Shown here piece after piece: positions 8,901-28,873 of a stretch of DNA of 64,000 nucleotides. Source of the stretch: Planctomycetota bacterium (GTDB lineage Bacteria; Planctomycetota; GCA-002687715; CAIWVZ01); contig JBGANV010000005.1 of the NCBI GenBank assembly GCA_044222185.1, positions 320,001 to 384,000 of the forward strand, read 5' to 3'. A program made the translations under genes and the position numbers. Position 1 is the stretch's first letter; each line of letters starts with the position of its first letter. The notes beneath the pieces were generated by a model, which had not been told where the DNA came from, did no database searches, and worked only from the letters and a program-made list of their open reading frames with translations.

Positions 8901-11900
8901 GGCGAGCGCACGCCACCGAGAAAGCCCATCGCCCGTCAACACCCCGATCGAGCCCACGCGGCGGGCTGGATCCGCGGCGAATGCCCGCAGGACCTCCTCC
9001 ACCTGCTCCAGCACGCCGTCCCCGATGCGCCCATCGACCCTGGCCGGATCGAACTGGACGCGGAGCTCCCACGCCTCGCCCGGGACGGCGACGAACGTGA
9101 CCGGATAGCTCGTCTGCTCCCGCGCGATCGTTCGCAGGACCGAGATCCCCTCCGGCGTCGTGCCGGCGGCGCGATCGATGGGGTAGTTCTCGATCACGAC
9201 GAGGCTGTCGAAGGGAGCCCGACCGAGCGGCATGCCAGCCGCTCGCTGGACGTCGCTCATCGGCGTCCAATCGAAGGGTCCAGCCTCCACCTGCTCGTCG
9301 TGGACCGCGCGGATCCAGGAGCCCGCGGGCTCGTCGGCATCGATCCGGACTCGGACGAGCCGCGTGTTGATGAACAACCCGACGCGTTCGTCGAAACCCT
9401 CCACCTCCGGGCTGCGTCCGGAGACGGTGGCGCCGAAGAGCACGTCACGACATCCCGTCCAGGCGGCGAGGACGCGCGCCCATGCCGCCAGGACGACGGA
9501 TGCAGGCGTCGCACGGACCTCCTGCGCGAGCCGCTCGAGCGATCGCGTGGCGTCTCGGTCCAGCCGCATCGTGCGCTCGACGACTCCGCGCGACGCATCC
9601 GCGGGCGCTCCGGCGGGAAGTCGCGGCGGAGGCTCGAATCCGTCGAAGCGCGAACGCCAGAAATCGTGGGCGCGGGCCGAGTCCTGGCGTCCGAGCCAGG
9701 CGATGTAATCACGCACCCGACGCATCGGCGTCGGTCGTGGCGCGCGCGCGAGGCGTCGCCCGTCGTACGTGCGGACGACGTCACGAAGGAGAATCGGCAT
9801 CGACCACCCGTCCAGGATGAGGTGATGCCAGGTGAACACGAGCACGTGCCGGACCTCGCTCGAACGGATCAGCGCGCACCGCAAGAGGGGCGCGCCGTCG
9901 AGCACGAAGCCACGCCGCCGGTCCTCCTCGAGGAAGGCGTCGAGCCGGCTCTCCCAATGGGCCTCCCCCCGCCAATCGAGCTCCACCCACGGGACGTCGG
10001 GCGTCCGGCGGATCAGAAGGCGCGGCTCGGCGAGGCCGTCCGCGATGACGGAGGCGCGCAACATCTCGTGCAAGGACGCCACGTGTTCGAAGCTCGCTCG
10101 GAACGCACCGGCGTCGAGCGGTCCCTCGAGCACGCTCGCGAGCTGTTGGAAGTAGGCGCGGGACTCGGGCTCGAGGAGCGCGTGGAAGTACATGCCCTGC
10201 TGCGTCGACGTGAGGGGCAGCACGTCGGTCAGATCCGGCGCCCTTTCACACACGACGCGCAGCTCGTCCTCGGTGAGTCGGGCCAGCGTGAAATCCGCGG
10301 GCACGAGACAGTCCTTCGGCCGAGTGGCCGCAACCTCGGCGAGCTCGCGCAGGCTCGCGAGCACGTGCTCGCGGAACGCGACCATCGACGAAGGGTCGGA
10401 GACGCCGCAATCGAGGCGCAGCTCGCGAGCCGTACGCCAGACGTTCACTTCCAGCGGATGCGTCGGCCGGTTCGTTGGCCCGCGTGCGACCCGCCCCAGG
10501 TCCAACCCGACGAGCGAAAGCTCCTTCACGTCGCCGGCGGGCGGCGCGACCTCGCCCAGGTCGTTGAAGAGGATTCTCGCCGGCGCGCCGGCGAGCACAC
10601 CGGTCGACGCCAACCCGCGACCGGCACCGCGCGCCGCCCGCAAGGCCGATTTCACCGCGCGCAGCGCCGCGCTTGCGGACGATACACCCGTCACCGAGAT
10701 GCGGTGCACGTCCGTGAGCCAGCCGACGACGTGCGAGAGATCCAGCCCCGTGCCTTCGCGTCCATGGTGCTCGACGTCGACGCTCACCGTCGACGTCGGG
10801 TCGGCGGACGCAAGCGCGTGAACGACGGCCGCGAGGATGACTTCCTCGATCGACGCGTGCGACGCCGCCCGGCCCGCACCTCGCAGCACGGATGCGACGT
10901 CAGCCGGGACGTCGATGCGCACGGGAATCGCGCGCGGCAGATCCAGCACGCGTGACGCGGGGGCGACGGCCGTCGAGGGCTCCGCCCGTTCCGCGAGGCG
11001 CCGCGCATGCTCGGCGTGGGTCGCCGGCCCGCCGGCGTCGAGGGCTCGGATGTCCGGAGATTCGCCACGGACGTCGGTCACGAGCTCGTCGAGGAGGAGT
11101 CTCCAGGAGACACCGTCGACGACCAGGTGATGAGCGATGCAGACGAGTCCGCACATCCGGAGGTCGACGGCGCGGAACCAGATCGCGTGGAGGAGCGGGC
11201 CGTTCTCCACGTCGAGCGACGCGTGGGCCGCATCGACCGCAGTCTGCACGACCCCGACGACGGATTCGACGCCACCCTGAAGCGACCCCAGGTCGCTCCA
11301 CGCGGGCGCGTCGCGATCGACGAACGATTGCGTGACCTCGCCTCCCCGTCGTCGGAAGCGCGCCCGAAGCTGCGGATGCCGTTGAACCAATCGACCGAGC
11401 GCATCGCGCCATCGCCCCGAGCGTGAATCGAACGGCACCTCGAGTCCGACGACCTGGTTCCATTGGTTCGGCTCCGCGAAGCCTTGCGCGAAGAACCAGC
11501 GTTGTATGGGAGTCAGGGGAACGTTCTCGCCGGGGCGTACGTCACGGATTTTCGGCGATGGTGTCTCCTCGCGGGCTGCGAGGGACAGACGAGCGAGTCC
11601 GGCGACGGTCGGATGCTCGAACACGTCGCGCGTCCCCAGAGCGATCCCCTCCGCCCGCGCTCGGCTCACGATGCGTAGACTCGAGATGGAGTCCGCACCG
11701 ATCGCGAACAAATCGTCCGTCACGCCCACGCGTGCGCGACCGAGGACCGCGCCCACGATCCGCGCGAGCTGCGCCTCGCGCGGTGTGCGGGGCTCGACGC
11801 CGTCTCCGACGACGCCGCCCGCGAGATCCATCGACGTCTCGCGCTCGATCCGTGCTCGATCCACCTTGCCGTGAGCCGTGAGCGGCAGCGTATCCACGTG

Positions 11901-14900
11901 CACCACTCGCCGCGGCAGCGCCACGGGCGGCAGCAGGCGCCGCAACCGATCCTGGATCGCCGCGGCATCGAGCCCATCTCCCCGCGTGACCCACGCGACG
12001 AGCTGCGCCTCGCCGTTCGGCGGCCGCGCGACGGCCACCGCGCACCCGCTGGCGCCCGTGGCGTCGCGAATCGCCGCCTCCACCTCGCCCAGCTCGATGC
12101 GATGTCCGCGGAGCTTCACTTGCTCGTCGCGACGTCCGAGAAACAGGAGCGAGCCATCGCGCCGCCAACGACAGACGTCGCCGGTGCGATACAGCCGTGC
12201 GTCTCTCGCCGTGGTGAACGGATCCGGCACGAAGCGGTCGGCCTCCGACGGCTGCGCGTGCAAGTAGCCCTCGGACAGCCCCGCGCCGCCGATCCACAAC
12301 TCGCCCGCGACCCCCATCGGCGCGAGGTGGCGGTCGTCGTCCAGCACCCAGGCGCTCACGCCTCGCATGGGGCGCCCGATCGGCACCGTGCCATCCGGTG
12401 CACAGTCCCCCCGCGAGACCTCGTGCGCGAGGCATCCGACCACGGCCTCCGTCGGGCCGTACTCGTTGAAGACCCGCGCGCCCGTCGCGTCCATCCACGA
12501 GATCGCGGAGGCGTGGGGCAGGGCTTCGCCGCCCACGACGAGCACGCGGGTCCAGTGGCGGCAGTCCTCGATTCCACGGATCGCCGCGAGCGCGTCCAGG
12601 TGGGACGGGGTGAGCTTCACGAACGACAGGTCGCGGTGACGACGCATGGAAACGATCAGCGGCTCGATCCCCTCGCCGTCGACGACGAACACGGTCCTGC
12701 CGCAGACGAGAGGTACGAAGAGACTCGTGATCGTGAGGTCGAAGCCCAGGGATGTCACGAGGGGCGCGCCCACCCCGTCCGCGCCGCCATAGAGGCGCGA
12801 GGCGTTCTCGACGTAACGAAGCAACCCGCGGTGGCCGACGACGACGCCCTTCGGCCGACCGGTCGACCCGGACGTGAACATCACGTAGGCCGCGTCGTCC
12901 GGCGCCACGGCCGGGAGCGGAGCGCCGAGGTCGGTGATCGGTTCGCCCACGCCGTGGACGCCTGCGAATGCTCCCAAGGCGAACTCGGCGCAGGTCGCGG
13001 GATCCGAGCCGATGACTGCCCTGGGCCCACTCGCGTTCGCGATGCGCGACCGCCGCTCCTGCGGATAGGAAGGGTCGAGAGGCACGAACGCAGCGCCGGC
13101 GCGCATCGCGGCGAGCACGGCAATGACACATTCGACCGACCGCGGCAGGTCGACCAGCACGCGATCGCCGCGGCAGACGCCGGCCTCGCCCAATCGACGC
13201 GCCAGTGCGCCCGAGCGTCGCCACAGTTCGTCGAACGTGACGTCACCCTGCGAAGACGAGATGGCTACCGCGCTCGCGCGTGACGCGCAGACGCGTCCGA
13301 TCACGTCCAGGATCGTCTCCGAGGAAACCGGCGCTTCCTCGCCTCGCGAGAACCCCACGAGTCGCCGTTGCTCATCAGCGCCCACGTGGCACGCGTCCTC
13401 CACGGCACGGTCCGGCGCCGCGAGCGCGGCCTCGATGAAGTGCACCCAGCGTGCCTGCCATGCGTGGATCGTGTCGTCGTCGAACAGGTCGGCGTTGAAG
13501 ACCCAGGTCGACGTCCCGGCGGCGTCGTCGGCGACGAACACGGTCAGATCGAATCGGGCGGGAACACGACCCGGCGACAGGACGCACACCTCGCATCCCT
13601 CGATGGTGAGCGCCCCGAGCGGCGCGGCCCATGCTTCGAACGCGACCTGGAAGATGGGCGTGCGAGTCAAATCGCGGGGCGGCTCGATCGCACGCACGAT
13701 GCGATCGAACGGCACGTTCCGATGATCGATCGCGAAGGCCAGCACGCGCATCGCCTCGCTCACGAGGTCGCGGAACGACCGGTCCGGCGCCGGCCGCAGG
13801 CGAAGCGGCAGCGTGTCGACGCAGAAGCCGACGAGGTCATCGTCATCGCCTGGCCGCCGGCTCGAAACGGACGTGCCCAGCACGAGATCGTCGACGCCGG
13901 CCGCCCGCCCCATGACGACCGCGAACGCGGCGAGGCCCAATGCGAACGGCGTCGCGCCGAGCTCGGCGGCGACCTCTTGCAACCGGGCCGCGACCACGGC
14001 TCCCAGCGCGACGCGGATCTCGCGCCCACGATCCGTCTGGAACGCCGGGCGCCGACGATCGAGGGGCAGATCGAGTTGCAACGGAGCACCGGCGAGTTCT
14101 CCGACCCACGGCGCGGGGTCGGCATCATCCGCGCCCATCGCGTGCCGCGCGAAGCTCGCGAACGATGGTGCGGGAGGCAAGTTTGGCACCTGCTTCGCGC
14201 GCATCGCCGCCGTGAGCGCGGCCAGCTCGCGCGCGAGCACGCCGATGGAGGTGCCGTCCGTGACGAGGTGATGCTGCGTCACGACGACCACGTGGTCATC
14301 CGCCGCGATGCGGAGGCACACGACCCGCAGCAGAGGTCCGGACTGCAGGTCGAATGGCCGCGACGCCTCGGCGGCGATCTCGTGGTCGAGCTGCGTCGGA
14401 TCGATCGCGGCCTCGCGCCACGAGCAACTTTCGCTGGCGTCGATCCGAGCTGCGAATTCGCCGTCGCGAGCCTCCACCCGGAGACGCAGGGCATCGTGGC
14501 GCACGACGAGAGCATCCCACGCACCATGCAGGATCGAGGTGTCCAGAACGCCGCGCACGCGGACGACCGACTGGACGCCATAGGTCGTCGAGCCCGGGTG
14601 CAGCCGGTCCAGGAACACGAGCCTGCGTTGCGCCGCGGTGAGGGGCACGATCGCCAGGTCCCCGCCCGACCCATCGGCGGCACGCGGCGTCGGCGTGCGA
14701 TCGCGCAGGCCTTCGATCAGCCGGGCCAACGCGCCGACGGTGGGCGCGGCGAAGAACGATCGCATGGGCAGATCGACACCGAATCGTTCGCGCGCGAGGT
14801 ACTTGATGCGGGTCGCGCCCAGCGAATGGCCTCCCAGCCGGAAGAAGTCGGCGTCGCGAGCGACGACCGCGTCTTTCGGGAGCACGGACTTCCACCAGCC

Positions 14901-17900
14901 GGCGAGCGTGGACTCCAACTCTCCGATCGGCGCCTCCGTCGCGAATGCGCCGGCTGCGGGCGGCGGCGGAAGTCTCGCCACGTCGACCTTGCCGCTCGAG
15001 GTCAGCGGAATGGACGCCATGAAGACGATCCGCCCGGGCACCATCACCGGAGGCAGCGAGGCCGTCAGCCACCGGAGGATCTCGTCTTCGCGGACGGCGG
15101 AGTCGTCGCCGTCCCTGGAGACGACCCACGCCAAGAGTCGCGGGTCCTCGCCCGCAAGAAGCCCGGCGACGGCGTCCGCGACCTGCGGATGCGCACGCAG
15201 CGACGCCTCGATCTCGGCGGGCTCGATCCGGTGACCGCGCAACTTCACCTGGCGGTCCATGCGTCCGAAGAAATCCAACGAGCCGTCGCTTCGCCACGCG
15301 ACGCGGTCGCCCGTGCGGAAGAACCGCACGCGATCGCCTTCTGCGGCCGTGCGGTCGACGGTGAACTTGCGCGACGTGAGTTCGGCGAGCCCGCGGTAGC
15401 CGGCAGCGACCTGCGGACCACCGATCCAGAGCTCGCCGGGAACACCGATCGGGGCCCGGCGCCCCGCCTCATCCATCACCCGAACGGTGGTGCCGGCCAG
15501 GGGACGGCCGATCGACACGACGGCGGGCGCGTCGGGCCGCAGGTCGGATTCCGTCACGCGGTGGATCGTCGACCAGATCGTCGCTTCGGTCGGGCCGTAG
15601 AGATTCCACGAACTCCGGCTGCGCACGACCAACTCCCGCGCCAGATCCTTCTGCAGCGCTTCTCCGCCGCACAGCGCCGTCAGGCTGCGATCGCCGCTCC
15701 ACCCTGCGAGCAACAGCGAGCGCCACGTGGACGGAGTCGCCTGCATGACGTCGATGCGATCCTGCTCGATCCGCCGGCGCAGGCGCGTTCCGTCGCGGGC
15801 GTCCTCGCGCGAGGCGATCACGACGGTCCCGCCTCCGAGGAGCGGTCCGAGCAGATCCAGCACCGCGATGTCGAACGTGGGATTCGTCGTCGCGAGCCAG
15901 CGTCCGCCCCGTGGACAACCGCTCACCTCCGCCATGGCGTCGAAGAAGGCGCGCACGCTGCCGTGAGTGACGACGACAGCCTTCGGCCGGCCCGTCGATC
16001 CCGAGGTGTAGATCAAATAGGCGGCGTCGGACGCGGCGTGCGAAAGGGCTGGGAGCGGGCGATCGGGCGCGGACAGGCGTTCACCCGGCCCGATCACGAT
16101 CGGCCTTCGAGACGTCAGGGATTCTTGGCCCGCGCGCCCCGCCGTCGTGATGACGACGGTGATCGCCGAATCGCGCAGCACGTGAGCCAGCCGCTCCTCC
16201 GGCCACTGCGGATCGAGCGGGACCCACGCCGCGTGAGCCCGATGGATCGCCAGGAACGCGGCGACGAGGTCCGGGCACGGCTCGAGAAGGACGCCCACGG
16301 ATTCCCCGCGGGCGACGGAGTGCGCCAACAACGCCGCAGTGAGGGCGTCGGCACGACGATCGAGGGTTGCGTGGTCGATCTTCGCCCCGTCGAACTCGAC
16401 CGCGACTCGATCGGGAGACTCGCGCAATGCGCGCGCGAGCCGCAACGGCAGGAATTCCCCCGACGCAACGCCGCAGGGAGTGGGCCGGGAGAAGCGCGCG
16501 AGCTCCGCCGCTTCGGCCTCGTCCGTCGACGGCAAGTCCGAAAGGCGCACGTCGCAATCCGCGAGCGCACGTTCCAGCATGGCGTCGAAGCGCCGCAGGA
16601 ATCGATCCAGATCCTCGCGGCAGAACGCCCGCGACGCCTCGACCGCAAGCTCGAGCCCCTCCTCGCGCGCCGTGATCTCGAACACGAGATCGAACGCGCT
16701 GCCCGCCGGGATGCGTCGCGCCTCGACGACGAGGCCGTCCACGGATCGCGACGGCGGCGCGAAGTCCACGTAGTTGAGCATCACCTGAACGAGGGGATGC
16801 CGGTCGACGGCGCGCTCGGGCGAGAGCGCCTCGATCAGAAGCTCGAACGGAAGCTCCTGGTGATCGAAGGCGTCGCGGACGATCGATGCGGAACAGGCGA
16901 GGTGCTCCGAGAATCGCAACGACGGATCGACCGTCGCGCGCAAGACGACGACGTTCAACAGCGCTCCGACGGTGCGCGACGTCCCGTCGGCCAATCGACC
17001 GGAGACGGGCGTTCCGATGGCTACGTCGGCGACACCCACGTGACCGTGGATCCAGTGCTGCAGGACGGCATATACGACCGTGAACGGACTGGCTCTGGCG
17101 GCCTTCGCCGCTTCGCGAAGGCGCGCGGGCGTCACGCGCGAGATGCGCTCGGAGCGGGTCGCCGAGCCCTCCGGCGCCGTCGGTTTCGCGCGAATCGACA
17201 GCTTCACGAGGTCGAGGGGCTGGAGACCGTCGAGCCGCGCCTTCCACCATGAGAGCGCTGCGGCGAATCCTCCGCCAGCCGCGTGGGCACGCTCCGCGAC
17301 GGCGAGGGCCCGAGCCGTCATCGCGGGAGGATGGGCGATCGTGTCGCCCCGGCTCGCGTAGGCGTCCCACATCTCGTCGAACGTGATGCGGAGCGAAAGC
17401 CCGTCGATGACCGCGTGGTGCGCAACGCAGACGAGTTCATGTCGCTGCGGGTCCGAGCGGAGGAGGAGGAACCGGAGCAGTGGTGCTTTCGCCAGATCGA
17501 AGCCGCGCGCGATCATCTCGTCGACGAGCTGCCGCCGCCGGCGCACGCGCTCGTCCTCCGAGCCGGCGAGCGTCACGGTCTGGAGGTCGACGTCGACGGA
17601 TGCCTCCACGACCTGTCGCAGGACGCCTCCCTCGAACGACAACGACGTTCGAAGGGCCTCGTGGCGCGCGACGACGCCCCGAAGCGCGACCACGAGCCGA
17701 TCCACTTCGAGCGGGCCGCGGATGGTGGTCGTCACGGCGAGCACGTGCGCCGGGTTGCGTGGCTCGATCTGCTCGAGGAGCCAGAAGCGCTCCTGCGCGA
17801 ACGATGGCGGCTGGGCGGCGTCCGGTGCCGCAGTCGCGCGCTCGTGCAACCGCCGCGCGAGGACCGCGCGCTGCGCCGGGGTCAGGTTCGCGATGCGGCG

Positions 17901-17915
17901 CTCGGCATCATCCAT
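5901..17915 (-). CDS. Three-module NRPS C-A(Gly)-T-C-A(Asn)-T-E-C-A(Lys/Arg)-T-R, 4004 aa
   Basis: C motifs HHAVIDG, HHLVTDG, HHLILDG. Three A domains (YTSGSTGRPK, FTSGSTGRPKG, FTSGTTGEPKG). T motifs GGHSL, GADSI, GGHSL. E motifs HHLVVDGVSW/EHHGRE. Reductase motifs VTGATGFLG and YAQSKWVAE. Start reassigned to MDDAERRIANL, overlapping the PKS2 stop. Confidence 0.95.
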   Translation of the reverse strand: MDDAERRIANLTPAQRAVLARRLHERATAAPDAAQPPSFAQERFWLLEQIEPRNPAHVLAVTTTIRGPLEVDRLVVALRGVVARHEALRTSLSFEGGVLRQVVEASVDVDLQTVTLAGSEDERVRRRRQLVDEMIARGFDLAKAPLLRFLLLRSDPQRHELVCVAHHAVIDGLSLRITFDEMWDAYASRGDTIAHPPAMTARALAVAERAHAAGGGFAAALSWWKARLDGLQPLDLVKLSIRAKPTAPEGSATRSERISRVTPARLREAAKAARASPFTVVYAVLQHWIHGHVGVADVAIGTPVSGRLADGTSRTVGALLNVVVLRATVDPSLRFSEHLACSASIVRDAFDHQELPFELLIEALSPERAVDRHPLVQVMLNYVDFAPPSRSVDGLVVEARRIPAGSAFDLVFEITAREEGLELAVEASRAFCREDLDRFLRRFDAMLERALADCDVRLSDLPSTDEAEAAELARFSRPTPCGVASGEFLPLRLARALRESPDRVAVEFDGAKIDHATLDRRADALTAALLAHSVARGESVGVLLEPCPDLVAAFLAIHRAHAAWVPLDPQWPEERLAHVLRDSAITVVITTAGRAGQESLTSRRPIVIGPGERLSAPDRPLPALSHAASDAAYLIYTSGSTGRPKAVVVTHGSVRAFFDAMAEVSGCPRGGRWLATTNPTFDIAVLDLLGPLLGGGTVVIASREDARDGTRLRRRIEQDRIDVMQATPSTWRSLLLAGWSGDRSLTALCGGEALQKDLARELVVRSRSSWNLYGPTEATIWSTIHRVTESDLRPDAPAVVSIGRPLAGTTVRVMDEAGRRAPIGVPGELWIGGPQVAAGYRGLAELTSRKFTVDRTAAEGDRVRFFRTGDRVAWRSDGSLDFFGRMDRQVKLRGHRIEPAEIEASLRAHPQVADAVAGLLAGEDPRLLAWVVSRDGDDSAVREDEILRWLTASLPPVMVPGRIVFMASIPLTSSGKVDVARLPPPPAAGAFATEAPIGELESTLAGWWKSVLPKDAVVARDADFFRLGGHSLGATRIKYLARERFGVDLPMRSFFAAPTVGALARLIEGLRDRTPTPRAADGSGGDLAIVPLTAAQRRLVFLDRLHPGSTTYGVQSVVRVRGVLDTSILHGAWDALVVRHDALRLRVEARDGEFAARIDASESCSWREAAIDPTQLDHEIAAEASRPFDLQSGPLLRVVCLRIAADDHVVVVTQHHLVTDGTSIGVLARELAALTAAMRAKQVPNLPPAPSFASFARHAMGADDADPAPWVGELAGAPLQLDLPLDRRRPAFQTDRGREIRVALGAVVAARLQEVAAELGATPFALGLAAFAVVMGRAAGVDDLVLGTSVSSRRPGDDDDLVGFCVDTLPLRLRPAPDRSFRDLVSEAMRVLAFAIDHRNVPFDRIVRAIEPPRDLTRTPIFQVAFEAWAAPLGALTIEGCEVCVLSPGRVPARFDLTVFVADDAAGTSTWVFNADLFDDDTIHAWQARWVHFIEAALAAPDRAVEDACHVGADEQRRLVGFSRGEEAPVSSETILDVIGRVCASRASAVAISSSQGDVTFDELWRRSGALARRLGEAGVCRGDRVLVDLPRSVECVIAVLAAMRAGAAFVPLDPSYPQERRSRIANASGPRAVIGSDPATCAEFALGAFAGVHGVGEPITDLGAPLPAVAPDDAAYVMFTSGSTGRPKGVVVGHRGLLRYVENASRLYGGADGVGAPLVTSLGFDLTITSLFVPLVCGRTVFVVDGEGIEPLIVSMRRHRDLSFVKLTPSHLDALAAIRGIEDCRHWTRVLVVGGEALPHASAISWMDATGARVFNEYGPTEAVVGCLAHEVSRGDCAPDGTVPIGRPMRGVSAWVLDDDRHLAPMGVAGELWIGGAGLSEGYLHAQPSEADRFVPDPFTTARDARLYRTGDVCRWRRDGSLLFLGRRDEQVKLRGHRIELGEVEAAIRDATGASGCAVAVARPPNGEAQLVAWVTRGDGLDAAAIQDRLRRLLPPVALPRRVVHVDTLPLTAHGKVDRARIERETSMDLAGGVVGDGVEPRTPREAQLARIVGAVLGRARVGVTDDLFAIGADSISSLRIVSRARAEGIALGTRDVFEHPTVAGLARLSLAAREETPSPKIRDVRPGENVPLTPIQRWFFAQGFAEPNQWNQVVGLEVPFDSRSGRWRDALGRLVQRHPQLRARFRRRGGEVTQSFVDRDAPAWSDLGSLQGGVESVVGVVQTAVDAAHASLDVENGPLLHAIWFRAVDLRMCGLVCIAHHLVVDGVSWRLLLDELVTDVRGESPDIRALDAGGPATHAEHARRLAERAEPSTAVAPASRVLDLPRAIPVRIDVPADVASVLRGAGRAASHASIEEVILAAVVHALASADPTSTVSVDVEHHGREGTGLDLSHVVGWLTDVHRISVTGVSSASAALRAVKSALRAARGAGRGLASTGVLAGAPARILFNDLGEVAPPAGDVKELSLVGLDLGRVARGPTNRPTHPLEVNVWRTARELRLDCGVSDPSSMVAFREHVLASLRELAEVAATRPKDCLVPADFTLARLTEDELRVVCERAPDLTDVLPLTSTQQGMYFHALLEPESRAYFQQLASVLEGPLDAGAFRASFEHVASLHEMLRASVIADGLAEPRLLIRRTPDVPWVELDWRGEAHWESRLDAFLEEDRRRGFVLDGAPLLRCALIRSSEVRHVLVFTWHHLILDGWSMPILLRDVVRTYDGRRLARAPRPTPMRRVRDYIAWLGRQDSARAHDFWRSRFDGFEPPPRLPAGAPADASRGVVERTMRLDRDATRSLERLAQEVRATPASVVLAAWARVLAAWTGCRDVLFGATVSGRSPEVEGFDERVGLFINTRLVRVRIDADEPAGSWIRAVHDEQVEAGPFDWTPMSDVQRAAGMPLGRAPFDSLVVIENYPIDRAAGTTPEGISVLRTIAREQTSYPVTFVAVPGEAWELRVQFDPARVDGRIGDGVLEQVEEVLRAFAADPARRVGSIGVLTGDGLSRWRALADGGPALPGENLVTAVMRRCSRAPDATIVEDRGSRTSGRAFLARVDEITRLIEVASPEPGPVAVTLGRSADFAAAMLAVWQVGRVAVPLDPSWPLARQQVLLARLAPALILAPRASRGAIGGEFRVAYLDAPPGASVVRAVPRATDGLTEPACIYFTSGTTGEPKGVELTHAGLASYVATARASFALEGGDRVLQFASTGFDASAEEIWCTLVAGATLVIRDDGWPLDPCEFWIRVAAERITVLDLPTSYWHELVRALPLGDCSVPDSVRLVILGGEAASPQAVRAWRDVVGSRVRLVNTYGPTEGTIVATLSDLTAGPHVPDDAIPIGRPLPGVRAWVLDDVGSPAPVGAVGELYLGGRGVARGYWNDPAATATSFVADTFIGEPGARAYETGDRVRWRPDGQLEWLGRIDDQVKIRGHRVEPREVEALLRTDPSIADAVVVAVASAEREVSLRACCIVREGVPATPDGIRGRLSAQLPAASVPAEVLVLDAFPITVTGKIDRRALARAPSALSRSTHDDGSLSEVERTVARAFSRALGCALPARHESFFSLGGHSLAALRVVAALREATGSRVLLRQLFDHPTVSGLASLLERGVTGTPVAPTPGVDLRAAVVLPDDVVAAPPRTDAGPRLMFPFVTGATGFLGAFVLRELLEATTARVACLVRAASQADGLARLHAAFARFALDCSGLEERVDVVVGRLDEPRFGLDERHHERLSTDCDAIIHAGGSTSFAAPYAVLAPTNVGGTIEVLRFASRVRAKPLHHVSSIGVFDCPSRRGTRVDEGATLSDAVDVTGSYAQSKWVAEELVRAAGMRGLPVTIHRVGRLTGSSRTGACNREDFVNRLFAACVELGCTPEVPADVDLTPVDFVAKAIVRIAGEGSGSSGPWHLMNPATVSTNAIVAELAAMGVVLRAVPLDVWRRRLRERAAADEASDLHSVLAVLEEADGGDATADAPVVTCPRTTAELSRLGIRCPPPDASLLATYWRFFERSADLRRGGR

Positions 17916-20900
17916 CGTCGGGTGGCGATTCGAGGAGTCGCCGCGCCTCGGCGTCGGTGAGGTTCTCGATCTCGCGAAGCAGCGCGTCATCGACCGTGGC
18001 CGGCAACGGCTGCGGCGCTCGAAGATTGGACAGCACGGCGTCGGACAGGCCCGCGATCGTGCGGTCGCCTGCGACGTCCGAGAGGGCGACGGACGCGCCG
18101 ATCGCCGAGCGGATGCGGTTCCGCAGCTCGACGGCGAGGAGGGAATCCAGCCCCAACTCACCCAGCGCCTGCTCGGGTCGGAGCGCGTGGGCCGGCGCGC
18201 GCAACACGTCGGCGACGAGTTCGCGGACACGCCCGCCCACGCGGACGCTCCGCGTGGCGTCAGGCAACCGCTCGATCTCGGCGAGGAAGTCCGCGGAGAC
18301 GTCCGTCGGGCGCGTGGCCGCGGACGGCGTGCACAGCCGGCGCAGGACGGGCATCCGCGCAGCGGACTGCCAGGAGCGCGCGAGCCGCGTCCAATCCACG
18401 CTCGTCACGGCGGCCTGCGGCAGGTCGAGTGCCAGAACGCGGTCGAGGGCGGCGCACATCTCCGCCGGATCTAGCGGTCGGATCCCCGAGTCCGAGAAAC
18501 GCTGTTTCGCCGCCAGGCTTCGCCCCGCCATTCCGCCACCGGCCCACGGGCCGAAGTCGACGACGACGCTGCGCAACCCCACGGAGCGCCGCGCGTGGAC
18601 GACCGCATGCATGAACGCGTTCGCGGCCGCGTAGTTGGCCTGCCCGGGGCTCCCGAGAAGGGCCGCCGTCGACGACACGCAGAGAAACATCCGGACGCCG
18701 GAGTCGGCTGCGTTCTCGTGAAGATTCCACGTGCCGGCCACCTTCGGCGCGAGTACCCGCTCGAATCGCTTCCAGGTCTGTTCACCGATCACGCCGTCGT
18801 CGAGGACTCCCGCGGCATGCACGACACCAGTGATGGCCCCCATCGCGGATCGAACCCATTCGAACAACGCGCGCACGGCCGCCGCATCCACCACGTCCGC
18901 CTGCCGGACCTCGACGCGGACTCCGCGGCCACGGAGCTCGGTCACGCGAACCTCGGCATCCGGCGCGAGCTTCGAGCGAGCGACGAGGACGAGCCGCTTG
19001 ACTCCCTGCGCGGCCAGGTGATCGGCCAGGTGCAGGCCCACCGCTCCAGTCCCGCCGGTGACGATCACGGGCCCGCGCCCGAACGGCCCGTCGTCGTCGT
19101 CGGCGCGTTCCGTCAGCCGATCCAACCGCGGCCCGAAGCGCTTCGTGCCCCGGATCGCCACCTCCGACTCCTGGCCGGAAGCGACGATCTCGTCCAGCAG
19201 CGCCGGCGTCGTGACGACGTCCACGTCCACGAGCCGGCAGTCGATCGTCGGGTACTCGGCGGCGGTCACCCGGCCCAGGCCCCAAGCCGTGGATCCCGCG
19301 ACGTCGATGCGATCACCGGCATCCGCGGCGACGGCCCGGTGCGTCACGAGGACCAGCCGGATTCCCTCGCCGCCGTCGGCGAGCTGTCGCATCACGGCGA
19401 GGAGGTCGCCGCAGATCAGGCTCTGCCGATCCATGTGCGCGTCGGCATCGACGCCCGTCGGCCCGTCGAGCGCCGAGCAGAACACGACGCCACGCACGGG
19501 AGCCTTGGGCCAGGGATCGCCGGCGGCGACGCGGACGGCTCTCGCGCCGCGTGCTCGCAGCCCGTCGGCGATGATCGCGCCTTCGTCCCCCATCCCACCG
19601 GCGACGACCCACAGGCCGTTCGCGGAGCCGCGTGTCACTGGCGGGAGGATCTCCCAACGCAACGTGTAGACGTGGTCCGACGGCGTGGCGGACGGCGCGT
19701 GGCGCGGCTTCACCACAGACGGCGCGAGGTCGAGCCAACACCGTTGGCGATCGAAGGGGTGATGCGGAAGCGAGACGACTCGGCCGCCGCCGCGCGGTGC
19801 GTCCGCAAGCGCAGGTGGCGGGAACTCGCCCCCCAGGGCGAGCGCCCGGAGCTTCGCGACCAGGTCCGATCGATCGACGACGGCGACGTCGACCCTCGCC
19901 TTGAACGCACCGGATCGGCGGCGCGCCGACGTGCACGCATCCGCCGTCGAGACGCCCGGGCTCGCCGTCAAATGGTCGGCGATCGCGCCGCACCAGCGCC
20001 GCAGTGCTTCGGGCGTGCGGGCCGCAAGCGTGAACACGTCCGGACCGTCAGCGGCGCCATCGACGTGCGCCGTCGCCGCTTCGCGCAGGACCACGTGGAC
20101 GTTCGTGCCCGAGAAGCTGAACGCGCAGACGCCGGCATGGCGCAGGCCCGGCGGTGCCTTCCACGGCTCGAGTGTCGCGGGCACGCGAAGCGGAAGCTCG
20201 TTCCAGTCGACGTGCGCCGTTGGCCTGGCGCAGTGGAGATGCGGCGCGATCTGCCGCTGCTCGAGTTGGAGCACGACCTTGATCAGGCCTGCGATCCCGG
20301 CGGCCGACTCGAGGTGGCCGACGTTCGTCTTGATGGATCCCACGACGACGCGGTCGGCCGGCGCACGCCCGCCGAAGACCTGGCCAAGCGCATTCAGCTC
20401 GATCGGGTCGCCGAGCGCCGTGCCCGTGCCGTGCGCCTCCACGTAGCTGATCCTCTCGGGTGGAACGTCTGCCGCGGCCAACGCCAGACGGATCACTTCG
20501 GCCTGCGCGGGTCCGCTCGGGACCGTGAGGCCGCTGCTCGCGCCGTCCTGGTTCGTCGCCGATCCCACGATCTCCGCGCGGATCCGATCGCCACCGGCAC
20601 GCGCATCCACCGCGCGGCGGAGCACGACGACGCCGCAACCCTCTCCCCGACCGTATCCGTCCGCATCCGCGGAGAAGGCCTTCGATCGGCCGTCCGGCGA
20701 GAGCATCTGCGCTTGCGAGAACACCAGGCTGGAAATGGGCGATGCGATGACGTTCGCCCCTCCGGCGATGGCGAGTTCGCATTCACCGCGTCGCAGGCTC
20801 TCACACGCGAGGTGAACGGCGAGGAGCGCGGACGAACACGCCGTGTCGACGGAGAGACACGGCCCCGTGAGTCCCAGCGTGAACGCGATCCGCCCCGAGG

Positions 20901-21462
20901 CCGCGCTGTGCGCGGTCCCCGTTCCCGAGAACCCCGAGATGCGTTCCTTGGGCAAGTGATCGATGATCAGGTTGGCGTAGTCGTGCGTGCTGATGCCGAC
21001 GAACACGCCGACCTTCCGGCCGCGCAGCGCCGTGGGGGCGATTCCTGCGTCCTCGATCGCCTCCCAGGACGCTTCGAGCAGAAGCCGCTGCTGCGGGTCG
21101 ATCCACGCGGCCTCGCGCGGCGAGATGCCGAAGAAGAGCGGATCGAACTGATCGATGGTCGAAAGGAACGCGCCGCGGCGAGTCGCGATGCGGCCGGGAG
21201 CCGCGGGATCGGGGTCGAAGTGAGCGTCCGGATCCCAACGATCGGAGGGGACGTCGCTCGTGGCGTCCCGGCCCGCGCGGAGGAGTTCCCAGCATGCTTC
21301 CGGGTCGCCGACGCCCCCGGGAAGGCGGCACGCCATGCCGACCACGGCGACGGGCGCGTGCGCGGCCGATTCCAACTCGCGAATGCGGCGCTCGGCGTCC
21401 TTCAGACGCTGGAGCGCACGCGTCATGAGTTCGCGAACGTCGTCGGGCGGGGTCGAGTTCAC
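17908..21462 (-). CDS. Type I PKS, AT-less module KS-KR-ACP (1184 aa)
   Basis: KS DTACSSA/HGTGT/GHLESAAG. KR GGTGAVG, HAAGVLDDG, YAAAN. ACP LGLDSL. No GHSxG AT motif. GTG start overlaps the PKS1 stop (GTGA). N-terminal coiled-coil docking segment. Confidence 0.92.
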   Translation of the reverse strand: MNSTPPDDVRELMTRALQRLKDAERRIRELESAAHAPVAVVGMACRLPGGVGDPEACWELLRAGRDATSDVPSDRWDPDAHFDPDPAAPGRIATRRGAFLSTIDQFDPLFFGISPREAAWIDPQQRLLLEASWEAIEDAGIAPTALRGRKVGVFVGISTHDYANLIIDHLPKERISGFSGTGTAHSAASGRIAFTLGLTGPCLSVDTACSSALLAVHLACESLRRGECELAIAGGANVIASPISSLVFSQAQMLSPDGRSKAFSADADGYGRGEGCGVVVLRRAVDARAGGDRIRAEIVGSATNQDGASSGLTVPSGPAQAEVIRLALAAADVPPERISYVEAHGTGTALGDPIELNALGQVFGGRAPADRVVVGSIKTNVGHLESAAGIAGLIKVVLQLEQRQIAPHLHCARPTAHVDWNELPLRVPATLEPWKAPPGLRHAGVCAFSFSGTNVHVVLREAATAHVDGAADGPDVFTLAARTPEALRRWCGAIADHLTASPGVSTADACTSARRRSGAFKARVDVAVVDRSDLVAKLRALALGGEFPPPALADAPRGGGRVVSLPHHPFDRQRCWLDLAPSVVKPRHAPSATPSDHVYTLRWEILPPVTRGSANGLWVVAGGMGDEGAIIADGLRARGARAVRVAAGDPWPKAPVRGVVFCSALDGPTGVDADAHMDRQSLICGDLLAVMRQLADGGEGIRLVLVTHRAVAADAGDRIDVAGSTAWGLGRVTAAEYPTIDCRLVDVDVVTTPALLDEIVASGQESEVAIRGTKRFGPRLDRLTERADDDDGPFGRGPVIVTGGTGAVGLHLADHLAAQGVKRLVLVARSKLAPDAEVRVTELRGRGVRVEVRQADVVDAAAVRALFEWVRSAMGAITGVVHAAGVLDDGVIGEQTWKRFERVLAPKVAGTWNLHENAADSGVRMFLCVSSTAALLGSPGQANYAAANAFMHAVVHARRSVGLRSVVVDFGPWAGGGMAGRSLAAKQRFSDSGIRPLDPAEMCAALDRVLALDLPQAAVTSVDWTRLARSWQSAARMPVLRRLCTPSAATRPTDVSADFLAEIERLPDATRSVRVGGRVRELVADVLRAPAHALRPEQALGELGLDSLLAVELRNRIRSAIGASVALSDVAGDRTIAGLSDAVLSNLRAPQPLPATVDDALLREIENLTDAEARRLLESPPDDG

Positions 21463-24400
21463 GCAGGGCCTCCGGAGCGCGGCGCCGAGCCGCGATCGAG
21501 GAGAGCTTCTACCGCCGCCACCTGTGCGCGCAACGCGGCAGCGAGGTCGTCGATCGACGTGGACGCCGCGGGCGGCATCTCCGCCGGCTGCGCCACGGGG
21601 CGCGTCGCCGGAGCCGCCTGATCGATCCTGCGTTCGATGGCCTCGAGCAGGGACTCGACGTCCGGGTGGTCGAACAACAGCGTCGTTGCCAGGCGACAGC
21701 GCAGTTGGGATTCCAGCCGGTTGCGGAATTCGACGGCGAGAAGTGAGTCCACGCCCAGGTCCGCGAAACGCCGCGTGGGATCCAGCTCCAGCGGTTTCTG
21801 GAAACCGAGCACGCGACCGAGTTGCTCTCCGACGAAGCGATGGAGCAGTCGTCGACGATCGTCGCCGACGGCCGCGAGGACCTGCGCACCGAGCCCGTCG
21901 GCCGCAGGCGAGCCGCCCGCAGGCGCTCGCTCGCCGGCGACGGCGCCGTCGACGACCTCCAGGAGCGGCAGGATCGCGGGAGGCGCCGCGGAGCGCAGCC
22001 GGGTCCAATCGACGTCGAGCACGGCCACGTTCGCGGCATCGCCACCGATCACTCGAGCCATGGCGTCGAACGCCGCGGACGCGTCCAGCATCCCGATGCC
22101 GCTCGCCGAGAACCGGGCCCGGTTGCGATCGGCGACCGCGCTCGCCATTCCGCCGCCGCCGATGGGGCCGAACGCGACGGCCGTCGCCGGAAGCCCCGCG
22201 GTTGCGAACGCGGACGCCAGCGCATCGGCGGCAGTGTTCGCGCAGGCGTACGGCGCCTGGCCGGCCGAACCCAGGAGCCCGGACTGAGACGTGAAGACCA
22301 CGAGCGACTCCACCGGCTCGCCGCGAAGCGCGTCGCGCAGGTTCCAGAACCCGTCGATCTTCGAGGCGAGAACGGGGGGGAACCGCTCCGGGTCGAGCCC
22401 GACCAGCATGCCGTCGTCGACGACGCCGGCGAGGTGGAATGCGCCGACGATGGGGACGTCGCCCTTCAGCGCCGACATCTCCGTGATGAGTTTGCGGCGG
22501 TCGGCCACGTCGGCGACGACGACACGAACGACGACACCGCGGGCCCCGAGCGCGTCGATGAGAGCGCGGACCTCCGGCGCGGGTTCGCGACGCGCCACCA
22601 GCACGAGGCTCCGTGCGCCGCGATCGGCGAGCCACGTTGCGAGGCGCAGCCCCAGGCTGCCCGTCCCGCCGGTGATGACGTAGGCGCCGTCCGAACGTAC
22701 ATCACGCAGAGCGCCGGGCGACGACCCGGTCCGTTCGTCGAGCCGCAAGACCACCTTGCCCACCGAGCGACCGTGGGCAAACGCGCGCAGCACCTTCGGA
22801 GCGAGCGTCACGTCGCAAACCGTCACGCGCGGCGGAGCCCACTCTCCCCTCGCGAACCGATCGAGGAGCCGTTCGAGACGACGGCGCTGGAGGGCCGGAT
22901 CGCCCGCCGCGGCCTCCGCCTGCTCGACCACGTGGTAGGCGACGTCCGGGCGGACCTGCCTGGCCTTCTCGGGGCTCCAGATTCCGAGCTTGCCGATCTC
23001 GATGAACCGGCCCCGCGGTGCGAGGCAACGGAAGCTCGCATCGATCGCGTCCCCCGCGAGGCAGTTGAGCACGACGTTCACGCCGCGTCCGCCAGTGGCG
23101 GTGAGGATCCTCTGGCGGAAGGTCGTGTCGCGCGACGAGTAGACGTGTTCGATTCCCTGGCGGCGGAGAAGCGGGACCTTCGCCGCCGACGCCGTCGCGA
23201 GGACGATCGCGCCCGCGCGGCGCGCGACGGCGATGGCCGCCTGCCCGACGCCGCCGGCCGCCGCGTGGATCAAGACGGTCTCGCCCGATTTCAGCTGCGC
23301 CAACTCTTCCAACGCCACGACGGCCGTGAGGTACGTGGTCGGGATCGCCGCCGCGTCGGTGAACGACAACGCACCCGGAAGCGCGAACACCTGCGAACGG
23401 TCGACCGTCACTTCCGACGCCAGACATCCGACCGTCGACACCAGCACCCGGTCGCCGATCGCAACACCTGCGCATCCCGCGCCAACCTCGCTCACGACGC
23501 CCGCGGCCTCGTAACCAAGCGGTGCGCCCTCGGCTGACGCGATCCCGAGGGTTTCGTGGAATGGTCGCATGGACCCCAGCACCGTGAGGCCGTCGCGGAA
23601 GTTCAGACCAGCGGCCGCAAGCGTCACTCGGACCTCGCCGTCCCGCGGCGCTCGTCTGGGGACCGGCGCGAGGTGGAGGCCGTCGAAGTCACCGTAGGAC
23701 GAAAGTTGCAACCGCCATGGGCCGTCCGGCCGCTGGAGGCGGTCTCGGCCGGCCTTGGGAGCGCGCTCGAGACGAGGCGCGAAGCGCAGCCCGGCCCGAC
23801 GCGCGATCTGGCATCCGTCATCGGAGGCCAGCGCCTCGCGCAGCACGAGGCCAGCTTCGTCCTGTTCGACGAACGGATCCAGGTCCAGATGAAGGGGGAC
23901 GAGGTCCGGGTGCTCGTGGGCGACGACCGTCGTGAATCCCGCGAAGAGCGCGCCCTCGGGATCGACGACGGGCGTCACGTCGTCGACGGCCCTGGTGCCG
24001 CGTGTGACGAAGATCAGTCGTGCCGCGTCAGACCCCAGACGTGCGAGGGCACGCGTGGCGAGGGTCGCGATCGTGCAGAGCTCGCGACGGCGCGACGCAT
24101 CCGGCGCAGCGAAGGCGAACCCGCCGCCGTCGAGGCCCCGCAGGATCACGGCGCGCGCTCGCGGCGCCTGGATCGCGGCGAATTCTCCGATTGCCGAACC
24201 GATCCGCTCGAGATTCGCGCCCGCCGCGACCTCCGTGACGGCGGCGCCCCGCTCCCGTAGTTGCGTCGAAAGCCTGGTGCCCAGCCCGCTCGCATCGTCG
24301 ATCACGAGCCAGCTCTCGCCGTCGAGCTTCGCTTCGCCCGTCACCGCGGCGACTTCGTGCCAGCGGGTGAAGCGGACGAGATCCGTGTTTGCGGTCGCCG

Positions 24401-27400
24401 GCGGCTGGAAGCGCTCGCGCACCGCCGGCCGAAGCTTCAAGCCCGTCAGGGTGACGTCGCCGGAGCCGTCGCCCGCGACGAATGCGACGCGCGCCACGCG
24501 CACCGCCGAGTGAACCGTCGCCGAGTCCATGTCGACGCGGACGCGTGCACGCGATCCGAGATTGCCCCGCACCACGATGCTTCCGATCGAGATCGGCAGC
24601 CACGGCTGGGTCTCCTCCAGGCCCAACGCCGCGACGACGGTCTGCAAGCCGCCGTCCACGAGCGCCGGGTGAGCCGAAAACCCCGCCGGCGAGCCCGCCT
24701 CCGCGGGGAGTTCGAGGCGCGCATCGGAGGCATGCTGCGCCGTCGCGAGCTCGCGCACGGATCGGAAGGCCGGCCCGTACTCCAGTCCACGCGCCAGGAG
24801 CTCCCGGTCGAACGCCTCGAGATCACACGGAACGGCGTCCGTCAGACCGGTGAGTTCGGCGGTCCCCGCACCCACCGAACGGCTGATGCGTGCGCGCACG
24901 TGCGTCGTCCACGGCGATGGCTCGGAGCCTCCGATCGGCTGCGAGACGACGGCGACCTCGCGCTCGCCGCTCTCGAGGCGCCGCACGACGGTCTGTATCG
25001 TCGATTCGCCAGCGAGCCGAAGGGGTGCCTCGATGTTGAAGTCCTCGAGAACCACGTCGCCGGCACCATCGGTGCGACGCACGGCGGAGACGCACAGCTC
25101 GATGAATCCCGCGGCCGGAAACACCACCGCGCCGAAGACCCGGTGGTCGGCGAGCCAGCGCGGGCTCTCCCGCGAGACCGTGGTCGTGAACACGCGAACG
25201 TTCGCATCGATGGCGACGGATCGGATCTCGGTCCCGAGCAGATCCGCGGTCGCATCGGCCGCGGCGCCGCGAAGGGTCTGCCGTGGCGGGAACCAGAACC
25301 TCTCGCGCGCGAAGGGCGTCGTCGGCAGTGCGACGCGATGCCGCACCGGATCCCGGGCAACGCGCGCCCAGTCGACGGGCGCGCCTGCGAGGAACAGCCG
25401 CGCGCACGCATCCGCGACGTCGCCGCGATCGTCACCGGCGGTGCGGAGAGGCGAGATCCATCGGATGTGCGCGCCGCCGAGAAATGCCTTCGCCATGGAC
25501 GTGAGCGTGGGCTTCGGCCCGATCTCGACGGCCACCGTGGCACCCATCTCGGCCACCCGCTGCATGGCAGCATGGAAGCGCACGGCCGAACGGAGCTGCT
25601 CGAGCCAGTACTCGGGTGTCGCGAAGACCGACGCATCGGCGTCTGGCGCGGCGGTCGAGACGATGGGCGTCGTCGCGCGGCCAAACGAGACGGCTGACAG
25701 CTCGCGCCGGAACGGTTCGATCACCGGATCCATCAGCGGCGAGTGGAACGCATGCGAGACGTCGAGGCGGCGATTGGGCAGCCGGCGACGATCGAGCTCG
25801 AGAACGATCCGGTCGATCGCCTCGAGGCTTCCCGATACGACGACCGAGCGCGGGCCGTTCATCGCGGCGACGGCGGCGCGGTCGCGAAGCGGCTGAACGA
25901 GCGGGGCGACGTCCTCCAGGGCGGCCGACACGGCAACCATGGCGCCTTCAGGCGACAGCTGACGCATCAAGCGGCCACGCGCCGCCGCGAGTCGCAGCGC
26001 ATCCTCGATCGTGAAGACGCCGGCCCGCGCCGCCGCGGCGAATTCGCCGATGCTGTGCCCGAGCATCACCGAGGGCTCGATGCCGAAGCTCGCCAGCAGC
26101 TCGGCGAGTGACCACTCGAACGCGACGAGCGCCGGCTGGGTGATCTCGGTCGCGGATAGCTGGTCAGACCGGGCTCCCCACAGGAAATCCGTGAGTGGCG
26201 CCGGGATCTCGTTTCGAAGGATCCGGCTGCACCGCTCGATCGCGTCGCGAAACACCTCGAACGTTCGGTGAAGTTCGCGACCCATGGACGCGTACTGCGA
26301 CCCCTGCCCGGTGAAGAGCCATGCGACCTTGGGTGGCGTCGATGCCACGCACGCAGCGTCGTCGGATCCGGACGTGGAAGCCAGAGCCTGCATGAACGTC
26401 TGCAGATCGTGCTGGGACCGGACGACTCGCGCCGCTCGCACCGGCTGCGGGGCACGGCCTGCCGCGAGCGTGAAGCACGTCGCGCCGACGTCCACCGGGC
26501 CGCGACTCACGACTTCCAGGAGGTTCGATGCGGTGGTGCGGAGTCGATCGCGCGTGGGGGCGGAGACGACGGCGACGAACGGTCCCGCGTCGTCCGCCAC
26601 GGGCTGAGCCGCGGCGTCTGCCGGGGACTCACCGATGACGATGTGACAGTTCGTTCCGCTGAAACCGAACGAGCTGATGCCGGCGACGCGCGGCCCGCCG
26701 GACCCGGGCCAGGCGACTGTGGCGCGCGGGATCGCGATCGGCATGCGCGACCAGGCGATGTGCGGGCTGGGCTCTTCGCAATGGAGGTGCCCCGGGATGA
26801 CGCCATTTCCCACGACCTGGACCGCGCGTATGAACCCGGCGATCCCGGCGGCGGTCTCCAGGTGGCCCAGGTTCGTCTTCACGGACGCGACGAGGAGCGG
26901 CCGCCCCGGCGGGCGCGAATCCGAGAACACGGCGTCGAGCGCGTTGATCTCGATGGGATCGCCGAGCGCCGTCCCCGTGCCGTGGGCCTCGATGAATCCT
27001 ACGGCCGCCGGTGTCAGGCGCGCGTCCTCGAGGGCGGCGCGAATCAACCGTTCCTGGGCGATGCCGTTGGGCATCGTGAGTCCGCCGCTCGCTCCGTCCT
27101 GGTTGACGGCGGAACCGAGGATGACCGCGAGGACCGAATCGCCGTCGCGCCGCGCATCCGACAGGCGCTTCAAGTACACGAGGCCGCAGCCCTCGCCGCG
27201 ACCGTAGCCGTCGGCCGCGGCCGAAAACGTCTTGCACCGCCCGTCGGGCGCGAGCATGTTCGCTTGTGAAAGTGCGATCGACGACAGCGGGTCGAGCATC
27301 AAGCTGACGCCGCCCGCGAGCGCCGCGCGGCACTCGCCGGCGCGCAGGCTCCGCACCGCGAGATGGATGGCGACGAGTGAGCTCGAGCACGCGGTGTCGA

Positions 27401-28277: not shown

Positions 28278-28873
28278 GTCGCCGCCGGTGCGTCGCTGCC
28301 GGATCGGCGAGCCGAGACGGCGCCCGTGGTCCTGCGATCGACGATCGCGAGCGTCACCTCGCCCTGCGCGAGTCCGCCCGCGTCATCGCGGAACCGGCAG
28401 CTGGTCCGCAGGAAGATGAAACGCCCGCGACTGGAGACGTGGTCGATTCGGACCTCGCCGACGAATCGGTCCGGCGAAAGTTGCCGCTTGAAGACGCTGG
28501 AGAACTCGTGGATCAGCACGTCGGGAAGTTGGCGGCGACGGTACTCGTCGATCGTCATGTCGCTGAGCGACGGGACGAGCTTGCTCACCACGCATTGCGC
28601 CATCAGCACGTAGACGAGCTGGTTGTAGCAGATGTTGAATTCGACGGAGTTGAAGTGCCCCGTGGCGTCGATGTAGCAGGACTCGGGGATCGAGAACTCT
28701 CCGGACGCGCGCGCCAGCGCCACGGGGTCGAGCGTGAAGTCGTCGGGCTGGACGTGCGGAACGTCGACGACGGCCGAGCGCAGGTAGCGACACTCCGGGC
28801 GATAGGGCGCGAGGATCGACGCGAGGAGGTCGGGTTCGACCACGATCCGCGGACCATTGGGGGGGAGCGACAC
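28274..28873 (-). CDS. fcoT: FcoT/ScoD-family thioesterase (glycine Michael addition in isonitrile biosynthesis)
   Basis: FSIPESCYIDATGHFNSVEFNICYNQ signature of the FcoT (Rv0098)/ScoD family. GAGGTG RBS. ATGA overlap with PKS1. Confidence 0.88.
   Translation of the reverse strand: MSLPPNGPRIVVEPDLLASILAPYRPECRYLRSAVVDVPHVQPDDFTLDPVALARASGEFSIPESCYIDATGHFNSVEFNICYNQLVYVLMAQCVVSKLVPSLSDMTIDEYRRRQLPDVLIHEFSSVFKRQLSPDRFVGEVRIDHVSSRGRFIFLRTSCRFRDDAGGLAQGEVTLAIVDRRTTGAVSARRSGSDAPAAT

Follow-up and report, generated by a model that had tools for sequence, protein, structure and literature searches.

According to published work on romidepsin, DepB and DepC both lack a functional AT and the cluster contains no AT gene; when the line was fully reconstituted in vitro, FabD1 loaded both proteins (10.1101/2025.03.13.642940; PMC12994790; both cited from the available parts of their text). 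The thalassospiramide line Ttc was described, in the accessible part of its report, as a pairing of a cis-AT module with an AT-less one, without any AT gene in the cluster, and as functional in a heterologous host. Its products persisted after inactivation of the cis AT, which the authors credited to a trans AT, and a primary-metabolic AT was proposed (10.1101/560987). According to the available portion of a catalogue of 8799 lines, both module types occurred in 473 of them (PMC10394414), and an Archangium cluster was reported in which module 1 carries two ATs while module 3 lacks one (PMC13454183, in part). The enzymes of isonitrile lipopeptide biosynthesis are known as ScoA-E (10.1101/121228, in part), and the accessible parts of several further papers provided general background (PMC6164871, PMC11907408, PMC13324335, PMC13691573, PMC12946266). 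An AT-less architecture with FabD as the donor is already known from romidepsin, and a missing AT is unsurprising to a specialist. Colibactin ClbC and certain modules of enacyloxin may be similar cases, although no support for this was found in the literature searched.

The window analysed here was the whole 64-kb stretch of Planctomycetota DNA (positions 1-64000), which was free of N. By its predicted gene functions, the cluster around the AT-less PKS2 is a ScoC/D/E-like isonitrile PKS-NRPS cluster, a context that was absent from the earlier note. The genes were as follows.

5901..17915, minus strand: NRPS, 4004 aa, C-A-T-C-A-T-E-C-A-T-R by Pfam
17908..21462, minus strand: PKS2, 1184 aa in one frame, from Pfam, the structural model and the coordinates
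21459..28277, minus strand: PKS1, 2272 aa, ACP-KS-AT-DH-ER-KR-ACP by Pfam and motifs
25488..26321, minus strand: AT of PKS1, with GHSIG and the malonyl-type HAFH; the only AT of the window and a candidate donor
28274..28873, minus strand: FcoT/ScoD-like enoyl-ACP glycyltransferase (PF10862, E 1e-54; NF049938, 158 bits, cut-off 250)
28882..29739, minus strand: ScoE-like Fe/2-oxoglutarate isonitrile-forming oxygenase (PDB ScoE, E 1e-63; NF049937, 268 bits, cut-off 400)
29926..31503, plus strand, divergent: ScoC-like acyl ligase, AMP-binding, start approximate (NF004837 above cut-off)

HAFH was listed as a malonyl motif in the accessible part of PMC13691573. Homologues of ScoD and ScoE were present together with a ligase and a carrier. 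Their best matches were ScoD and ScoE, at scores below the NCBIfam equivalog cut-offs, and the divergent ScoC-like ligase was found at the same position in related loci. Like the ScoA-E and Rv0097-0101 clusters, the window encoded an acyl ligase, a carrier protein, putative FcoT/ScoD and ScoE counterparts and an NRPS whose last module was of the Lys type and was followed by an R domain. However, ScoA-E had a free-standing ACP and no PKS, whereas in the window the carrier was fused to PKS1 and two PKS modules were inserted; the NRPS had three modules in the window and one in ScoA-E. The E domain of the NRPS was assigned putatively, from its position and motif. The extracted A-domain codes were, in order, DILQLGLIWK, DLTKVGEVGK and DAEDIGTIVK. 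We take the first two to be codes for Gly and Asn. The third resembled Lys codes printed in the part of 10.1101/121228 that was available, and together the codes point to Gly, Asn and Lys as the predicted specificities. Neither a PPTase nor a type II thioesterase nor any evident exporter was found among the Pfam-scanned ORFs of window positions 1-64000, so these functions must come from elsewhere in the genome. Elsewhere in the window, three tandem paralogous Kelch-repeat genes adjoined the ligase (31518-36700, minus strand), and a stand-alone LanC-like gene was located next to an O-methyltransferase gene (58599-60071, minus strand, and 59899-61281, plus strand).

PKS2 started with a GTG at 21462, overlapping the stop codon of PKS1, and contained no stop or frameshift over 1184 codons, with a GC3 of 0.85 that was similar to that of the neighbouring genes. 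Its domain order was an N-terminal coiled-coil docking domain, KS, KS-AT linker, post-AT linker, KR (LDD type), ACP and a C-terminal docking domain. Pfam placed the KS at residues 37-411, the KR at 798-974 and the ACP at 1078-1143, in addition to the KS-AT linker, and found neither an AT nor a DH over the whole protein. The parts around the missing domain and the C-terminal end were as follows.

20080..21354, minus strand: KS, Cys-His-His intact, on the cis-AT side of the KS tree
19837..20040, minus strand: KS-AT linker subdomain, kept (PF22621 and PF16197), folded in the model
19783..19836, minus strand: junction loop, aa 543-560, in place of the entire AT domain
19735..19782, minus strand: post-AT linker, kept, AT profile positions 343-362
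17929..17988, minus strand: C-terminal docking motif, of the NRPS-facing type in related clusters (docking profile, 41.4 bits)

The earlier note had described the protein as running directly from the KS-AT linker into the post-AT linker. Both peptides quoted for this were found at the claimed site in one open frame, LVAKLRALALGGEF from 19863 (PKS2 aa 534) and RVVSLPHHPFDRQRCW from 19782 (aa 561). The distance between the end of the KS and the post-AT linker was 113 aa in PKS2, compared with 443 in PKS1 and approximately 445 in most AT-bearing homologues. Thus, about 330 aa (about 990 bp) of AT were missing from PKS2, in frame. An AT profile with 363 positions, built from 39 AT-bearing modules, matched PKS2 at positions 343-362 only, which corresponded to the post-AT linker. 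The deletion was also upheld by Pfam, which found the KS, the KS-AT linker, the KR and the ACP of PKS2 and no AT, and which recovered the full AT reported for PKS1 (Acyl_transf_1, aa 653-930, E 1e-62). When the AT profile was run on 861 six-frame segments of the window, it found the PKS1 AT only, in agreement with the statement that the cluster contained no trans-AT; tblastn and motif scans of the window gave the same result. A frameshifted or displaced AT in another frame was rejected, since the six-frame scan of the window contained none. The deletion was deeper than usual in that it also removed the helix preceding the post-AT linker, which was kept in 22 of 40 comparable modules, and the spacer was the second shortest of 53 measurable. 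Such an unusually deep deletion could weaken the linker.

The remaining active sites were intact, as had been claimed for the KS triad, the KR Tyr and the ACP Ser: the KS contained DTACSS, EAHGTGT and GHLE, the KR its Lys-Ser-Tyr and the ACP the DSL motif. A single-sequence fold of PKS2 reached a pLDDT of 35, and an alignment-based model (57 rows) was used instead. It had a mean pLDDT of 90, with the KS, the linker, the KR and the ACP folded and a short loop at the AT site. This junction loop had the lowest local confidence (pLDDT 61) and was flanked by two confident parts, and the closest structural matches of the model were DEBS-type modules. Since an AT was present in most of the alignment rows, the model indicated compatibility and not stability.

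The loss was shared by homologues, as the earlier note had suggested checking. Related loci were collected by an FcoT-alignment scan of species-representative genomes, in which 320 loci were confirmed and the best 80 were kept. Among 1020 other KSs, those nearest to the KS of PKS2 (KS2) came from the locus L015 (61% identity), the locus L046 (58%) and the protein P0073 (59%), all without a working AT. P0073 was a Planctomycetota MAG protein of 1174 aa that had the same clean loss and aligned with PKS2 end to end, in a single stretch, at 40% identity; the KR Tyr and the ACP Ser were conserved in both. A second homologue search with PKS2 residues 1-300 was dominated by two-KS proteins and gave no closer relative. 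In L015 and L046 the second PKS, whose gene was incomplete because it extended past the fetched DNA, had at the same position a shrunken AT without the serine. In this remnant GGHALGE or GGAGIGE stood at the serine motif, and the small subdomain that carries HAFH had been lost. After the AT remnant, these second PKSs (L015 17176-20508, L046 7416-10538) contained a DH-like stretch in which no catalytic motif could be recognised. The cluster family may hold an AT series from an intact AT, through half an AT without the serine (L015, L046), to none (PKS2, P0073). Both KS histidines were intact in all four second PKSs. An ACP-led PKS1 with a next gene was seen in 14 of the best 80 of 320 loci, of which 12 led to an NRPS (L009 and L011 being near copies) and two (L015, L046) to a second PKS. 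As judged from these sequences, the AT loss of PKS2 is real and inherited.

The origin of the module was addressed with an IQ-TREE tree of 40 KSs out of 1021; these comprised nearest neighbours, AT-less matches and references. A split with 100/100 support set 10 trans-AT rows apart, and PKS2 fell on the cis side of it, so the KS was of the cis type. PKS2 and P0073 were sisters (99/96), and both were located with L015 and L046 inside a 96/91 group that included two AT-bearing KSs. A branch of their own for the four AT-less relatives was supported at only 63/24 and, given the AT-bearing KSs in the group, one or two AT losses were possible. Forcing KS2 among the trans-AT KSs cost 57 log-likelihood units, with a borderline AU p of 0.047. 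KS2 scored 125 bits higher with a cis KS profile than with a trans one, and it was 39-43% identical to the KSs of two trans-AT reference loci (L081, L082) versus 55-58% to cis-AT KSs. In the 40-row tree, the AT-less KSs of the cis side did not all group together but stood at several points next to AT-bearing ones, which suggested repeated secondary loss in cis-type lines. The possibility of a cis-to-trans-AT intermediate, raised in the earlier note, fared poorly against this placement and scatter, with the AU result borderline. PKS2 as an ancestral intermediate of the trans-AT clade was rejected, given the position of its KS on the cis side of the 100/100 split. The pattern fits AT-less cis modules that would be convergent with trans-AT systems, not ancestral to them.

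Loss of this kind was seen in other proteins as well, at frequencies that were biased because the homologue sets had been seeded with PKS2. No AT was found in 16 of 99 other proteins of the PKS2 homologue search, and 70 of 357 AT-less KSs were cis-like, 40 of these with a clean loss, in 36 proteins including PKS2 and P0073. AT-bearing and cleanly AT-less modules were mixed in 11 of 149 giant PKS proteins; the giant proteins came from a search of protein representatives that yielded no close orthologue of PKS2, and they served as a source of KSs. Sharing of an AT between modules would be more plausible in these giant alternating PKSs (P0348, P0364, P0373, P0376, P0377, P0408, P0425, P0430, P0434, P0464, P0476) than in PKS2.

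We compared PKS2 with the known AT-less systems. It had canonical cis-AT traits, namely a cis-clade KS, a KS-AT linker, a post-AT linker and terminal docking domains, whereas neither Pfam nor the AT profile found the embedded AT with a GHSxG serine. Like romidepsin DepC/DepB and their burkholdac-type homologues, PKS2 was a stand-alone protein with the order KS-KR-ACP and a length of about 1185 aa that had cleanly lost its AT, kept its other active sites intact, carried a cis-side KS, lay directly before the NRPS and had no AT gene in the cluster to serve it. A dep-like protein from the locus L085, so called by gene order and annotation and not by comparison with DepC, was 37% identical to PKS2 end to end (1203 columns). 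No AT was found in the 43.6 kb of this dep-like cluster, where the first PKS retained an AT remnant and the second, which was the one compared with PKS2, was a clean loss. The Burkholderia proteins P0098 and P0099 were of the dep type, as a 79% identical plasmid protein lay in this dep-like cluster. However, PKS2 was rejected as a DepC orthologue since KS2 and the DepC-like KSs of P0098 and P0099 were on different branches. Thus, the AT loss of PKS2 was independent of that of DepC. Moreover, the DepC-like proteins kept the helix preceding the post-AT linker, which PKS2 did not, and docked by SLiM/beta-hairpin elements in contrast to the helical motifs of PKS2. Both PKS modules of dep clusters were without a working AT, whereas in the window the upstream PKS1 kept its AT. 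In this respect the thalassospiramide line was closer, as Ttc also paired a cis-AT PKS module with an AT-less one in a mixed NRPS-PKS line that had no separate AT gene in its vicinity. The AT-less module of Ttc lies within an NRPS protein and is termed trans-AT in the available part of the paper, and it was likened to PKS2 by description (10.1101/560987). Classical trans-AT PKSs (thiomarinol and Bacillus; L081, L082) shared with PKS2 the KS-AT and post-AT linkers without an AT, but their KSs formed a separate 100/100 branch outside which KS2 was located, and their clusters encoded a stand-alone AT. A stand-alone AT shared by several AT-less modules was not found in the 64-kb window, which contained one AT-less module.

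The place of PKS2 on the line was indicated by its docking motifs. A profile of the NRPS-facing end was built from the PKS1 C-termini of the 12 clusters where PKS1 meets the NRPS directly. These PKS1 proteins ended in an acidic two-helix motif, with leave-one-out scores of 16-44 bits. PKS2 scored 41.4 and P0073 23.6 bits, while the PKS1 of the window scored 2.7, that of L015 7.2 and that of L046 -1.1 bits. An N-terminal coiled-coil motif was common to the four second PKSs (PKS2, P0073, L015, L046). From these motifs, the order PKS1, PKS2, NRPS appeared to be wired in. The KR, DH and ER motifs of PKS1 were intact and, for this reason, KR2 would have no ketone to reduce unless KS2 condenses. In the scheme that we prefer, PKS2 would be an active elongation module that descends from the cis-AT type and has secondarily lost its AT. 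A predicted isonitrile fatty acyl starter would be made by the ScoC/D/E-like enzymes, and PKS1 would add one fully reduced extension before its chain passes to PKS2 via the docking domains. ACP2 would receive its malonyl group in trans, chiefly from FabD, the malonyl transacylase of the fatty-acid synthase, whose gene would lie outside the window; KS2 would condense, KR2 would leave the beta-hydroxyl, and the chain with this one beta-hydroxy extension would move to the NRPS for addition of Gly, D-Asn and Lys and reductive release. The simplest interpretation of these sequence features is elongation, and it is quite probable that PKS2 elongates with some trans malonyl donor. The complete reading, that is, secondary AT loss, in-trans malonyl mainly from FabD and elongation, is held at a little over even confidence.

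Supply of malonyl to PKS2 in trans, as the earlier note had proposed with the PKS1 AT or FabD as the source, was the most likely option, with the AT absent and the KS, KR and ACP residues intact. The romidepsin and thalassospiramide precedents favour FabD, and by analogy it is the likeliest main donor for ACP2, a view that we consider somewhat more probable than its negation. The 64-kb window did not contain fabD; we presume that the host genome encodes it, as is usual where fatty acids are made by the type II route. It is unlikely that PKS2 elongates with malonyl from the embedded AT of PKS1, which would then load both ACP1 and ACP2 in a docked complex. This AT was the sole one in the window, intact, of malonyl type and one gene away from PKS2, and an intact PKS1 AT also accompanied the dead or missing AT in L015 and L046. 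In addition, the 11 of 149 giant PKSs in which a single chain combined AT-bearing modules with cleanly AT-less ones, together with the Archangium cluster (PMC13454183, as far as its available text goes), made sharing within a line plausible. On the other hand, PKS1 had a single AT and an unchanged layout in the 12 clusters without PKS2, Ttc was productive despite inactivation of the upstream cis AT (10.1101/560987, in part), and DepB and DepC work with no cis AT whatever (10.1101/2025.03.13.642940, in part). Accordingly doubtful is the wider proposal that the PKS1 AT physiologically loads ACP2 on a separate protein and that the family preserves the steps of AT loss. A dedicated stand-alone AT outside the 64-kb window is very unlikely to serve PKS2. 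Some dep-type clusters do have an AT of their own (SpiP, PcdP) that replaces FabD1, according to the available part of 10.1101/2025.03.13.642940, and the source contig was 466 kb long compared with the 64 kb covered. However, unrelated genes bounded the cluster on either side, and no intact free-standing AT gene was present in the best 80 of 320 related loci, where the few KS-less AT matches were fragments of broken PKS genes.

The earlier note had also allowed that PKS2 only passes the chain on. There is little probability that it merely hands the chain from PKS1 to the NRPS as a non-elongating adaptor, although it has no AT, the module was absent from 12 of 14 related clusters (among the best 80 of 320 loci) and the docking motifs make chain passage via PKS2 likely anyway. 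Against this, both KS histidines were intact in the four second PKSs, and the KS histidines and the KR residues were kept in PKS2 and P0073 although the two were 40% identical. Non-elongating KS0 domains have been described, in the accessible part of PMC9582728, as being without one catalytic histidine; PKS2 was rejected as a KS0 since the histidines of EAHGTGT and GHLE were intact. Similarly improbable is a decaying PKS2 in a cluster that is silent or bypasses it. The progressive erosion in the family, where L015 and L046 have a degenerate DH-like stretch and an AT that lacks its Ser, would agree with decay, as would the very short spacer of PKS2, but the reading frame was open throughout, GC3 was as in the neighbours, and all active sites and both docking motifs were retained. 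Moreover, skipping PKS2 would not be easy because the NRPS-facing motif was lost from PKS1. Finally, PKS2 was known from a single contig, and the deletion might in principle be an assembly error. This was extremely improbable: of the 20 largest direct repeats and the 25 longest inverted repeats listed, none lay at the junction, and the sister protein P0073 from an independent genome had the same loss. The deletion also kept the reading frame, and the KS genes of PKS1 and PKS2 were only 70-89% alike in their best stretches.

The cluster type was not limited to this window. The nearest named FcoT homologues and the PKS1 orthologues were from Planctomycetota, and a conserved cluster of a divergent ScoC, ScoE, FcoT, PKS1 and NRPS was found in many members of this phylum (L001, L005, L007-L013, L016, L021, L038), including the cultured Engelhardtia mirabilis Pla133 (L012), whose cluster has no PKS2. 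The first A-domain codes of the conserved clusters formed two groups. L015 (7873-10552), L019 and L038 had FcoT and a ligase with no ScoE-like gene between them or nearby. These ScoE-less variants may end at a glycyl or beta-amino fatty acid and not at an isonitrile, and L015 may make a different product because no ScoE gene was present in its 20 kb. Many cyanobacterial genomes had ScoE-FcoT-ACP-NRPS clusters (L014, L018, L024, L026-L031, L037, L043, and further L065, L067-L069, L075, L076, L080). In other FcoT/ScoE loci (L056 9470-10975, L061, L064 17339-18790, L079), a KS-only gene of about 480-500 aa followed a highly reducing PKS. A ScoE search of plasmids gave three distant matches. No publication on the Planctomycetota isonitrile PKS-NRPS family was found in the literature searched, which was thin in subscription journals.

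For product prediction, PKS2 should be counted as an active extension and not as a broken gene. If loading by the PKS1 AT were true, the locus would be a two-protein natural model of an embedded AT starting to act in trans, and the first cis-to-trans step would be directly testable in a line making an undescribed isonitrile polyketide-peptide. Within the small family, the added PKS, the changes in its docking and two stages in the decay of the AT can be compared, and the family offers a compact setting for testing FabD against neighbour-AT loading. The Planctomycetota isonitrile PKS-NRPS family itself may be a better lead than the missing AT.
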